Positions 21,854-25,210 of a stretch of DNA of 25,326 nucleotides are shown here, one piece after another. The stretch spans positions 1,119 through 26,444 of the forward strand of contig JARGOW010000001.1 in assembly GCA_029212955.1 (NCBI GenBank), given 5' to 3'. The translations under genes and the position numbers were made by a program. The notes under the pieces were generated by a model. That model saw only the letters and a program-made list of their open reading frames with translations. It was not told where the DNA came from and searched no databases. Every line of letters starts with the position of its first letter. Within the stretch, counting starts at the first letter, position 1. The DNA comes from Planctomycetota bacterium. GTDB lineage: Bacteria; Planctomycetota; UBA1135; GCA-002686595.

Positions 21854-22657
21854 GGGGGGAGTGTAGCGAGCCCATGGGGCAGATTCGGTACAAAATCGGG
21901 TCCTGGAGGACTCCAGGCGCTGAATTCGGGCCGTTTTCCGGGTGTGAGATGGATCCTAGGTGGCCCGGGGACGGGTGGGCGGCATGGGGCAAAACCCTTG
22001 GCCTGGCGCGGTTCGGGGGACGGGGGAGGCGACTGCGGGCCGACAATGGGCTGGATCGGGCATTCCCGGCTCCGATTGCACTTTCGGTGCCCTGGGCAGA
22101 ATGCGAGAAAGCGCCCCGGTAGAGAGCTCGGTCCCTTCGGATTGAGCATGGGTAGAGCGGGTGGGCTCTCGCTCCATCCACGGAAGGACAGGCTTTGGGC
22201 TTTTGATGGATGCCGTCATTTCATTAACAAGCATTTACGTGCTGAGCTTTGGAAGTTGCATTGTCGATCACCAGGGGCTTCTACATGGACCTTTTTGGGC
22301 CCACTGTTCGAAATCCTGGTTGACCTTTCAATTTGTTCAGAATAGCTGCGGGTCGATGGGCGGCATTTACGCTTCTTGGTTTGGAAGGCAATCGTTAGGA
22401 GTGTCCTGCGTGCAAGGTGCGCAGGTCCACCATCTTCGGGTGGGCACTCTGGGCTATTCGCCGCAAGTGAATCCAGCCAGCCGCCCTTTGCGAGCTCCAC
22501 CGGAGCCTGCTGGGAGGGCCCGTCGCCAACAGCTGGGTCCCAGTGACAAGAGATCCTTGGGTTTCTCGTTCTCGGACCGAGCCACCCGTTTCGGGTTTGG
22601 TCACGGGATGGATTCATGGCGCTGCCTCCTCCTCCTGCCAGTCCCAACAAAACTCCA

Positions 22658-25210
22658 ATGAATACACCCAATCTTCAAAGTATCTCCACCCTCGGGCTGC
22701 TTTGCGCTGCCACATTGATTGTGGCCCCAGTCCAAGCGCAGGAAGCCCACGTCGAAGCCCCCGTGAAAGCGACTTCGAGTCCTGTGGTTTCTCCCGCCCA
22801 AGTCCCTGACCGCCCCGTGGTCCTGGACTTCAAAGGCGGCGCCGTTGACGGGGCTTTGGCCCCCAAAATCGGTCCCCGCACCCCCGTGGTGCACACCCCG
22901 CTGGATACGGCACCGACGGACGGTCAGGGTGGCGAGCCCAGCATCCAGCGTGCCGACTTCCAACAACTCCTGCGTGAGCGCATGCACTACGACATGCAAA
23001 ATGGACAGGTGTGGGCCATGGGCGGCGATTACAAAGCCAGTGCAGGTCCGGAAGGATTCTCCTTCATGCCTTTCCTGGGCAGCGATGCACCCAAGACCTT
23101 CGAGCACAAGATGCGTTTGAGCTCCGCCACCCTCGGCGGTGAGCCGATCGTTTTGGACGGGACCGCCAAGGTGAAGCGCGCCGGAGACCGCGTCATTCTG
23201 GACCGTGGTCCGGTCGACGTGTTCTACGACATGTCCACCGAGTCCGTCGAGCAAAGCTTCGAGCTTGAAGTGGCCGGGATCGATGCCGAACTTGTTATCG
23301 ACATCGAAGTCGACTCCGATGGTGAGATGGAAATCCGGGGAGACGCCATTTACTACGTGAATGACCGTGGTGGCATTTCCTATAGCCACGCGATTGTGAT
23401 CGACGGCGCCGGCAAGCGTTTGGAGCTGCCGATCGTCGCCACCAAGGGCAATGTGCGCCTGACCGTGCCCGCCAGCTTCATGGCCCAATCGGTGGCTCCC
23501 GTGCTTGTCGACCCGGTGATCAATTCCTACCAGGTGCATGCTGGCTACGCCTACAACCTAACGTCGCCTGACGTGGCGTTCGATTCGACGACGAACACGT
23601 TCGCATACGTGCATCAAAGCCAGTGGTCTACCACCGACTATGACGTCTGGATGGAAACCTACGGGGGCAACTCTGGCGCCCTTGTGGACCTGCAGAGTAT
23701 CGATTTCTCCACGGGAAATGTTCAGACTCCCAATGTGGCGAACGATGCAGGTTCCGACCAGTTCCTCGTGGCGAGTCGCCGTTTGGAAGCCAATGGCCGT
23801 TGGGAAGTCATCGGTCGTATGGCGGATGCCACCGACATCTCCCAGCGCAGCCCCGTATTTGTGATCGGCGACATCAGTGGTGCGACCGGCGATCCCTCCG
23901 GTTGGGACAACCTTCGCCTCGATGTTGGCGGTAAGTCCCAGGGAACCTCCCTCTTCAAAGTGATTTGGGATCGCGAGTTCTTCACGGCCACGGGTTCCTA
24001 TGTGAACCTTAGAACCACCACGGTGACCCCTGTGGTCCCGTTCAGTACTGTGACGCCGCCGTCCACCAGCGGACTTTCCGCAGTGACGGTGGATGTGGGG
24101 GTCCGGGATACCATGGCCAAGATTTCGGAGTCTTCTGGAATGGCAACCGTCGCCGAGTGGCGCAGTGCCTGGATTCGTACGGATATCGCAACGGGAGCCC
24201 AGTCGGCTTACACCATGCTGACCGCGGATGACAACACCCAGAACCTAGCCCCGACGCTCCTGTTCAGTTTGAGCTCCTCTTTTGCATTCAGGGATCTGGA
24301 TGTGACCGAAGGATTGACCACCATGGATGGGCCGCTTTCGGCGAGCCCGGTTTCGCTGGTCGCGTGCCACTTCGATGGCCCGAACTCCGCCGATGTCTGG
24401 TTGTACGGTGTCCAAGATGCTGGGTTCTTTGAGGAAATGCACCTCACCGCCAGGGAGCACCAGGATCTGGGACAACGTCCCCGATTCCCCGCCGTGGCTG
24501 CCCTCGCGTCCCGTTTCGTGATTGCCTACAAGGAATTCAACATCAACACGGGCCAGTATACGTGCTACTCCAGTTCGGTCGACTTGAACAACCAGAACGA
24601 ATTTGCCGTTGCTGAGCGTCGTGAAGTTGTGGCGGAATTGGGTATCAACTACTCAGCAGATCGCCCCGCAGCGGCCTCCCGTTACTCGGGTGGTCTCTAC
24701 TCGTCCCGTTACGTGGGAACCGCGGTCTCCTTCTTTGATGGCACTTTTTGGACACAGGAAGCCGCCGTCATGTTCCCGAGCCAATCCTTCTCACCCGCAC
24801 ACCAGTACTGCGCGGGCAGCCCGAACACCACGGGCGATTATGGCTTCATCAGTATGGGTGGAACCTCGGCGACAACCGGCGGCAAGACCCTGTATGCCAG
24901 TTCGATGCCCCTAAACCAGTTCGGCTACTTCGTGGTCGGTCATGGTGGCTTTGGCACCCTCGTTCCTCCGGGAAGCGCTGGTACCCTCTGCCTGATCGGC
25001 GGCATCGTCGGTCGCTACAACCAGGGCATTGAAATCCAGTTCACTGGAACCACGGGTTCGTTTGCCTTGAGCATCAACCCGGCAGCCATCCGATCCAACT
25101 TCGGAGATGTGGTTGGCACTTCGGGCCAAACCTACAACTTCCAGGGATGGCACCGCGAAAACGGTGGTAGCAGTAACTTCACCAACGCGGTGACCCTGCG
25201 GTTCGATTGA
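22658..25210 (+). CDS. Large secreted multidomain protein (~850 aa): N-domain, probable beta-propeller, Cys-containing C-terminal domain
   Basis: Signal MNTPNLQSISTLGLLCAATLIVAPVQA-QEA. APVLVDP domain boundary, ~7 P-x-V-A-type repeats, terminal domain starting YC. Followed by a terminator. Confidence 0.85.
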   Translation: MNTPNLQSISTLGLLCAATLIVAPVQAQEAHVEAPVKATSSPVVSPAQVPDRPVVLDFKGGAVDGALAPKIGPRTPVVHTPLDTAPTDGQGGEPSIQRADFQQLLRERMHYDMQNGQVWAMGGDYKASAGPEGFSFMPFLGSDAPKTFEHKMRLSSATLGGEPIVLDGTAKVKRAGDRVILDRGPVDVFYDMSTESVEQSFELEVAGIDAELVIDIEVDSDGEMEIRGDAIYYVNDRGGISYSHAIVIDGAGKRLELPIVATKGNVRLTVPASFMAQSVAPVLVDPVINSYQVHAGYAYNLTSPDVAFDSTTNTFAYVHQSQWSTTDYDVWMETYGGNSGALVDLQSIDFSTGNVQTPNVANDAGSDQFLVASRRLEANGRWEVIGRMADATDISQRSPVFVIGDISGATGDPSGWDNLRLDVGGKSQGTSLFKVIWDREFFTATGSYVNLRTTTVTPVVPFSTVTPPSTSGLSAVTVDVGVRDTMAKISESSGMATVAEWRSAWIRTDIATGAQSAYTMLTADDNTQNLAPTLLFSLSSSFAFRDLDVTEGLTTMDGPLSASPVSLVACHFDGPNSADVWLYGVQDAGFFEEMHLTAREHQDLGQRPRFPAVAALASRFVIAYKEFNINTGQYTCYSSSVDLNNQNEFAVAERREVVAELGINYSADRPAAASRYSGGLYSSRYVGTAVSFFDGTFWTQEAAVMFPSQSFSPAHQYCAGSPNTTGDYGFISMGGTSATTGGKTLYASSMPLNQFGYFVVGHGGFGTLVPPGSAGTLCLIGGIVGRYNQGIEIQFTGTTGSFALSINPAAIRSNFGDVVGTSGQTYNFQGWHRENGGSSNFTNAVTLRFD

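Follow-up and report, generated by a model that had tools for sequence, protein, structure and literature searches.

Described terminal modules and the type-1 tail

Several described systems place a common module at one end of many exported proteins. Those of type IX secretion systems (T9SS) carry a C-terminal domain (CTD) of ~70 to 100 amino acids (aa), while dockerin-cohesin and surface-layer homology (SLH) modules are single, terminal and usually C-terminal, occur on many secreted enzymes, are specific to a lineage, and are matched to a receptor of the same cell. Here, we analyzed a stretch of 25,326 nucleotides from a Planctomycetota bacterium (the window; GenBank assembly GCA_029212955.1, contig JARGOW010000001.1, positions 1,119 to 26,444), in which a gene for an exported protein ends in a 134-aa domain that we call the type-1 tail. 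Based on comparisons of sequences and genomes, we put at roughly 0.55 the probability that this tail is a lineage-specific address or anchor tag through which exported proteins are recognized by a shared partner.

The closest parallel in layout is with the T9SS CTDs (PF18962/TIGR04183 for type A and TIGR04131 for type B). Each is a folded beta-sandwich that closes unrelated Sec-dependent cargo at the very C-terminus, once per protein; a genome has tens to hundreds of such proteins, and alternative tail types exist on similar cargo. Unlike T9SS CTDs, however, the type-1 tail is 134 to 150 aa long and has an invariant Cys pair, has no profile match or specific structural match, and is N-terminal in some copies, and SprA, PorU, and PorV were not found in the window's genome (hereafter G000) or in Saltatorellus ferox. 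With dockerin and SLH modules, the tail has in common that it is a single terminal folded module, possible at either end, of many secreted proteins; it differs in having no Pfam match at E<=1 (including PF00404 and PF00395), a different fold, and a diderm host. The PEP-CTERM/exosortase, LPXTG/sortase, and GlyGly-CTERM/rhombosortase systems show the same behavior across genomes, in that homologous passengers bear different signals in different lineages and a signal is present or absent genome-wide. Their signals, however, are tripartite, ~20 to 35 aa long, and include a transmembrane helix, whereas the tail is a soluble 134-aa domain without one. In membership tests, the tail fell outside the T9SS CTD, PEP-CTERM, and dockerin/SLH groups and the known carbohydrate-binding module (CBM) and lectin families. 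By analogy, docking of the dockerin or SLH type is the behavior we consider most likely for it.

Copies, passengers, and replacement by a second tail

An iterated hidden Markov model (HMM) search over six-frame open reading frames (ORFs) of G000 (4.0 Mb in 624 contigs, 76% complete, 61% GC) recovered ~136 ORFs with a type-1 tail, roughly 4% of the ~3,500 greedily called genes; a single-sequence search alone gave 99 matches. Paralogue E-values ranged from 1e-20 to 1e-57, far beyond chance. Every ORF had one copy and none had two. Most copies (112 of 136) ended within 5 aa of the stop codon, 9 ran off a contig end, and ~9 were near the N-terminus. A signal-peptide-like N-terminus, with the A-x-A/Q-type end seen in the window protein, was called in 88 of 100 complete tail ORFs by a crude hydrophobic-stretch rule.

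The proteins in front of the tail were mutually unrelated. A domain scan of 74 complete tail-bearing G000 proteins left most without a match; the remainder included FG-GAP repeats (7), right-handed beta-helix (3), GSDH (2), Peptidase_S8 (2), and single cases of FGE-sulfatase, Endonuclease_1, CotH, LTD, M10, M43, beta-lactamase, DUF4394, GBD_T9SS_assoc, LVIVD, Chlam_PMP, PPC, and reprolysin. Structural neighbors of the tail in AFDB and the ESM Atlas had a similar range of passengers (beta-helix, VCBS/FG-GAP, LamG, cytochrome c, MAM, S8, M10, M43, Endonuclease_1, esterase, and GBD_T9SS_assoc). The first-pass annotation, which was made from the sequence alone, had anticipated that an HMM of the tail would find many paralogues, placed C-terminally, preceded by signal peptides, and attached to diverse passengers, and these counts bear it out on all four points. 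In all 14 orthologues of the window protein that were compared, the tail was more conserved than the passenger (47 to 74% versus 28 to 56% identity; for example, 74% versus 53%, 64% versus 40%, and 55% versus 28%).

The N-terminal copies form a group of their own, in which a signal peptide is followed by a long-variant tail and then by an FGE-sulfatase domain (PF03781). Five such proteins are full length, and up to ~9 are counted with fragments; the tail begins ~5 residues past the predicted signal peptide cut. Since at least five proteins carry the tail right after the signal peptide, it appears to work as a folded module that does not require a free C-terminus. Two of the five genes are in tandem on one contig, directly downstream of a Ser/Thr kinase-TPR gene (L111:6076-9651), and a kinase fused to an FGE-sulfatase domain was found at L119:4388-6589.

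At E<=1e-3, a global HMM search returned 11,517 cluster representatives (clustering at 50% identity); 7,504 were left at E<=1e-10. The named records with a type-1 tail were S. ferox Poly30 and Planctomycetota metagenome-assembled genomes (MAGs). The complete genome of S. ferox Poly30 has at least 150 copies, all scored at E<=2.4e-37, a lower bound in that 150 of 383 candidates were scored. The first-pass annotation had stated that similar tails occur in deep-branching planctomycetes, and these records agree with it. Of 300 genomes sampled from the phylum, only members of the window's GTDB family had multiple copies (six of seven), and five genomes beyond it had a single match each. Among 40 genomes of the order, five of six family members had 52 to at least 100 copies, and 33 of the 34 genomes from the other nine families had none. 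In a nearest-neighbor test, tail sequences from different genomes were intermixed, with no sign of concerted evolution, under uneven sampling.

One family member, G209, had no type-1 tail at all although its genome is 92% complete. At the end of an S8 peptidase of this genome, we found a different tail (type 2), which is ~123 aa long, Cys-free, and closes with KLTNAxDLxLG[YFH] directly before the stop codon. It had no match in Pfam or NCBIfam. All 40 copies examined, from 9 genomes, ended within 3 aa of the stop codon. G209 contained 46 to 56 type-2 copies; there were none in G000, G175, G241, or G097 and one weak match each in G005 and G072.

We then counted both tails, at E<=1e-3, in 20 genomes, comprising 19 of the window's GTDB family and S. 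ferox (placement not shown). In 17 of the 20, there were 35 to >150 type-1 tails and 0 to 2 type-2 tails, and in the other three, G209, G333, and G338, the pattern was reversed (0 to 2 type 1; 18 to 56 type 2). The type-1/type-2 counts were at least 101/0 in G000, 99/1 in G005, 100/1 in G072, 52/0 in G097, 68/0 in G175, 99/0 in G241, 66/0 in G257, at least 150/2 in G328, 68/0 in G329, at least 150/0 in G330, 138/0 in G331, 114/0 in G332, 136/1 in G334, 84/1 in G335, at least 150/0 in G336, 35/0 in G337, at least 150/1 in S. ferox, 0/56 in G209, 0/18 in G333, and 2/42 in G338. Matches to the minority type may be contamination of the MAGs. Of the 34 genomes from the order's nine other families, 1 had type 1 and 31 had type 2, with 1 to 17 type-2 matches per genome to a profile built from G209 alone.

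Between sister genera, the same cargo can carry either tail. The G209 S8 peptidase and an S8 peptidase of G000 (contig C206) are 57% identical over 422 aa, and their alignment halts ~10 residues before the type-1 tail; from there, the G209 protein continues with a PKD-like domain and then the type-2 tail. Three further pairs with the same cargo and different tails were 52%, 46%, and 42% identical. The window passenger and Endonuclease_1 were dropped as swap tests, as neither has a G209 homologue. When the two tails were compared by hhalign, the probability was 0.2% as long as the profiles were small and reached 1.5% (E = 0.033) for 193 versus 40 sequences. The aligned stretch comprised only the last two strands, in register, and this alignment is suggestive at most of homology between the tails.

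Structure of the tail and features of the window

Translation of positions 24806 to 25210 of the window gave the 134 aa quoted in the first-pass annotation, followed by the stop codon. An AlphaFold2 (AF2) model based on an alignment of 32 paralogous tails had nine beta-strands in an all-beta fold (predicted local distance difference test [pLDDT], 92.5; predicted template modeling score, 0.87) with no transmembrane stretch. Conservation was scored in 106 full-length paralogous copies from G000. Both Cys and R117 were present in all 106, followed by N7 (97%), S8 (92%), G10 (93%), G59 (96%), R70 (94%), G107 (within 93 to 98%), Q113 (98%), and W115 (96%) and, at the end of the domain, N124 (96%), S/T126 (100%), and F133 (93%). 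A Phe was last or second to last in 81 of ~98 C-terminal copies. The initial description of a distinct terminal unit with two Cys, no transmembrane helix, and a Phe near its end was thus accurate, and the motifs that it had listed correspond to truly conserved columns of this alignment. The invariance of the two Cys, together with the exported location, points to a C732-C792 disulfide. Two length variants exist, 62 short copies (~135 aa) and 44 long ones (~150 aa), in which an insert follows the second Cys. Between passenger and domain lies a short G-[TSA]-x stretch but no Pro/Thr-rich linker. Type-1 tails of G000 contain hardly any lysine (on average 0.23 per ~140 aa) and are acidic, their net charge being ~-4 to -5.

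Searches against described domains returned little. Pfam and NCBIfam scans of the tail and of the whole protein gave zero matches at E<=1, and a sequence-profile search of the PDB gave nothing significant, so the similarity to a named domain, carbohydrate-binding or otherwise, that would have spoken against the first-pass proposal did not appear in these databases. Foldseek against the PDB gave only assorted Ig/FN3-like domains with TM-scores of <0.5, and an exhaustive VIA-align search gave only generic Ig/FN3 domains, with a top Z of 8.5, which the tool rates as background; no T9SS CTD was among the top 50 PDB matches of either tool. The top Foldseek PDB matches were intramolecular ester-bond adhesin domains, at TM-scores of only 0.33 to 0.45 and root mean square deviations of 7 to 10 A. 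Such domains have a Thr-Gln bond together with a catalytic His and an acid; in the tail, T109 and Q113 are conserved but lie four apart on one strand, and His116 occurs in only 42% of copies. Good matches (TM-scores of 0.7 to 0.94) in AFDB clusters and the ESM Atlas were solely to uncharacterized Planctomycetota proteins. As modeled, the tail is an Ig-like sandwich without a specific known relative.

Two N-x-S/T sequons are conserved in the tail. STT3/PglB was not found above the curated cutoff in G000 or S. ferox (the sole match was partial, at 21 bits), which counts against N-glycosylation of the two; the S-N-F-[ST] motif is therefore probably structural. The last strand follows the pattern [ST]-N-G-[LV]-x-[VI]-x-F and then 0 or 1 residue. 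The C-terminal beta-signal of outer-membrane barrel proteins is polar-x-G-x-x-hydrophobic-x-aromatic, which the last strand of the type-1 tail resembles; type-2 tails also end on an aromatic residue. This likeness may reflect merely a buried last strand. Because N-terminally placed copies exist, a free end of the strand is not essential.

The window gene is listed in Table 1 together with the other features located in this study. A database protein identical to the window protein (P0002) has 850 aa, which favors M15 at 22658 as the start; this is probably the real one. The signal peptide is typical in appearance, with the cut region LIVAPVQA|QE. The model of the whole protein shows a disordered stretch ahead of the beta-sandwich and propeller, with pLDDT <50 at residues 1 to 71 and 95 to 121. 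The nearest PDB folds of the passenger by Foldseek were bacterial and human sialidases (TM-scores by target of 0.52 to 0.60, ~9% identity); this likeness in the modeled structure would concern the fold only, and we do not infer activity from it. Orthologues of the window protein with 33 to 58% identity occur in Planctomycetota MAGs, and two paralogues of the passenger, 50 to 52% identical, are on contig C167 of G000.

Table 1. Features of the window gene (positions in the window) and of related genes on other contigs
Feature	Location	Strand	Basis or remark
Whole gene, tail-bearing exported protein	22616..25210	+	ORF list; 864 aa from first ATG
Sec signal peptide, probable (MNTPNLQSISTLGLLCAATLIVAPVQA / QE)	22658..22738	+	Read from sequence
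Pro/Ala/Val-rich segment after signal peptide, low confidence	22739..22975	+	pLDDT <50
Passenger N-terminal beta-sandwich, residues ~124-300	22985..23515	+	AF2 strands, pLDDT ~70-90
Passenger beta-propeller, residues ~310-720, sialidase-like fold	23543..24775	+	AF2 pLDDT 80-94
Type-1 tail domain, 134 aa, short variant	24806..25207	+	Translation, paralogue profile, AF2
Codon of invariant Cys 1 (C732; domain position 2)	24809..24811	+	100% in 106 copies
N-T-T, family motif N-S-[TS]-G	24824..24832	+	N-x-S/T sequon in 80% of copies
Codon of invariant Cys 2 (C792; domain position 62)	24989..24991	+	100% in 106 copies
Last strand of the tail (family positions 126-133)	25166..25207	+	
N-F-T, family motif S-N-F-[ST]	25175..25183	+	N-x-S/T sequon in 96% of copies
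Stop codon right after TLRFD	25208..25210	+	
Type-2 tail	L218:1552-1920	+	G209 contig C161; alignment A5
Signal peptide-tail-FGE-sulfatase proteins, ~425 aa	L111:3275-4549 and L111:4639-5916	-	G000 contig C124
Further tail-FGE-sulfatase proteins, ~425 aa	L112:342-1616, L113:3305-4570, L114:6848-8122		
Family of ~430 aa, no signal peptide, no Pfam match, four G000 copies	L123:3239-4549, L124:3446-4687, C595:2-1117	-	

Partner candidates and the role of the tail

Machinery of the described systems was sought in G000 and S. ferox. With the profiles for SprA, PorV, and PorU (TIGR04189, NF033710, and NF033707), both genomes were devoid of matches at E<=1e-3, as they were genome-wide with Por_Secre_tail (PF18962); both negatives are without a positive control, as the 14 control genomes include no T9SS organism. 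Exosortase (PF09721) was absent from G000 and present once in S. ferox. Each of these two genomes has six secretin-domain genes (in G000 on contigs C129, C190, C359, C457, C567, and C105), and a pair of ~900-aa secretins ~10 kb apart is conserved throughout the order. Two candidates, the ~900-aa secretin and the GspD beside GspE, have full-length orthologues in type-1, type-2, and outgroup genomes, and we rejected both as partners specific to the tail. A type II secretion system (T2SS) is thus present that could carry folded, disulfide-bonded proteins in general, but it is not tail-specific. A ~430-aa cytoplasmic family found beside three tail genes was likewise rejected as a partner, since it is sporadic in the order and does not track the tail.

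The recurrent neighbors of tail genes, in G000 and at 80 loci elsewhere, were only Ser/Thr kinases, extracytoplasmic function (ECF) sigma factors, and syntenic orthologues. The kinases, which have TPR, WD40, or FGE domains, and the ECF sigma factors, which are of the planctomycete type (PF07638), adjoin tail genes on G000 contigs C122, C124, C166, C167, C175, C181, C265, and C274, in S. ferox at L031:3500-6402, and at L032 and L036. Nine of ~29 kinase genes in G000 are within three genes of a tail gene, against ~3 expected. Their recurrence beside tail genes suggests that individual cargo genes have their own sigma factor or kinase control.

We propose that tail-bearing proteins would be exported by Sec and lose their signal peptide, after which the tail would fold in the periplasm into a compact Ig-like beta-sandwich with one disulfide staple. 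The folded tail could then serve as a common handle, read by one partner common to all ~136 cargo proteins. Its likeliest role would be noncovalent docking at the cell surface, on a receptor or a glycan, which would hold hydrolases, propellers, and adhesin-like proteins there in the manner of dockerin or SLH modules; we favor this role because the domain also appears to work N-terminally and no tail-specific translocon appeared. The cargo may cross the outer membrane by a general pathway, of which the conserved T2SS is an example. The disulfide, the single cognate partner, the docking at the surface, and the route across the outer membrane are what we infer from these comparisons. The argument for a label with a shared partner is that the tail was exchanged on all cargo at once, which would not be expected of a domain serving each protein's own substrate. 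Passenger families whose terminal signals differ from lineage to lineage are the comparative pattern by which sorting signals are recognized. The first-pass proposal of a sorting or anchoring module belonging to an undescribed system has therefore fared unevenly: its comparative predictions held and the tail swap adds to them, but the machinery was not found and a minority of copies are N-terminal.

Several results weigh against the address-tag explanation. No partner for the tail was found among the secretins, T9SS genes, neighboring genes, and scaffolds searched, and both tested secretins are conserved regardless of tail type. There was no recurrent outer-membrane-like neighbor of the cargo genes in G000 or at the 80 loci from other genomes. 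A cohesin-like repeat scaffold was not seen in a self-BLAST of 780 large ORFs of G000, which is weak evidence given a fragmented assembly and a strict filter. As a generic sandwich of the Ig/FN3-like kind, with VIA-align Z of <=8.5 (background level), the fold is uninformative on function. The three type-2 genomes may form one clade and so record a single switch event, and the genomes compared are related to one another; the 17-to-3 split therefore does not amount to 20 independent observations. Searches of the literature found no description of the tail domain.

A true outer-membrane translocation signal, comparable to a T9SS CTD, with a dedicated translocon and perhaps later removal of the tail, would account for the terminal, single-copy placement on >130 Sec-dependent cargo proteins and for a folded beta-sandwich of the same fold class as T9SS CTDs. 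Passengers such as GBD_T9SS_assoc, S8, M43, and nuclease are of kinds that use T9SS in Bacteroidota, and a tail switch across the whole secretome fits a signal matched to one machine. We nevertheless regard this explanation as unlikely. SprA, PorU, PorV, and Por_Secre_tail were absent from G000 and S. ferox (in searches lacking a positive control), neither tested secretin tracks tail type, and copies ahead of FGE-sulfatase are hard to reconcile with a C-terminal requirement. There is no linker, and in N-terminal copies the short G-[TSA]-x stretch that precedes the Cys is found behind the signal peptide as well, which is why we read it as part of the fold rather than as a cleavage motif. The N-terminal placement is more in keeping with a handle for docking than with a signal of T9SS or PEP-CTERM type whose position is strictly C-terminal.

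The presence of the tail at either end of the protein is also what a ligand-binding module would allow, that is, a lectin- or CBM-like or adhesive domain for external targets (polysaccharide of algae or prey, for example, or particles), carried by many enzymes to direct them to substrates and needing no partner encoded by the cell. Carbohydrate binding is commonly built on Ig-like sandwiches, hydrolases and adhesin-like proteins make up many of the passengers, and the polar and aromatic residues T109, Q113, W115, R117, D/E118, and N124 on the last strands resemble a sugar-binding face. Such modules, however, usually occur on a subset of enzymes and are often tandem or internal, whereas the tail is present as one terminal copy in ~4% of genes and on all kinds of cargo; it matched no CBM, lectin, or other family in Pfam, NCBIfam, or the PDB sequence profiles. 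Genome-wide, all-or-none replacement on the same cargo would be unexpected if each protein had acquired a module for its own substrate, and we therefore consider a ligand-binding role decidedly improbable. The same wholesale exchange would be unexpected of a neutral accessory, such as a stabilizing or solubilizing cap, a folding aid, or a spacer spread by recombination. The generic fold, the failure to find a partner, and the occurrence of lineage-specific domain "fashions" would suit an accessory without an addressing role. In contrast, the tail is more constrained than its passengers, ~20 polar residues of surface type stay almost invariant in hundreds of paralogues, and placement is strictly single copy and terminal, which together leave this explanation with very little probability. 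The address tag with a shared partner remains our preferred reading. A more ambitious extension of it, which we hold only tentatively and think doubtful on present evidence, is that the two mutually exclusive tails mark two versions of a dedicated, undescribed sorting or surface-display system of Saltatorellus-group planctomycetes, parallel to T9SS in function and unrelated to it, in which label and partner were exchanged once across the secretome; in that case, the secretome affected would comprise 50 to >300 proteins.

What is new here is the complementary distribution of the type-1 tail with a second unnamed tail, the pairs of proteins with the same cargo and different tails, the subfamily of FGE-sulfatase proteins with an N-terminal tail, and the exclusion of two secretins as tail-specific partners. 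Public data hold >11,000 cluster representatives of the type-1 tail, for which neither Pfam nor NCBIfam has a model. With an HMM for each of the two tails, hundreds of hypothetical proteins in every genome could be annotated as exported and probably surface associated. With 17 type-1 and 3 type-2 genomes in one family, and type 2 across the rest of the order, the question of the partner is directly testable, and in S. ferox Poly30 there is a strain in culture whose genome is complete. The Saltatorellus group, to which the bacterium of the window belongs, is shape-shifting, and its cell envelope is already regarded as unusual. If the tail is an address label, ~4% of the genes in such a genome would depend on an undescribed sorting or anchoring system.

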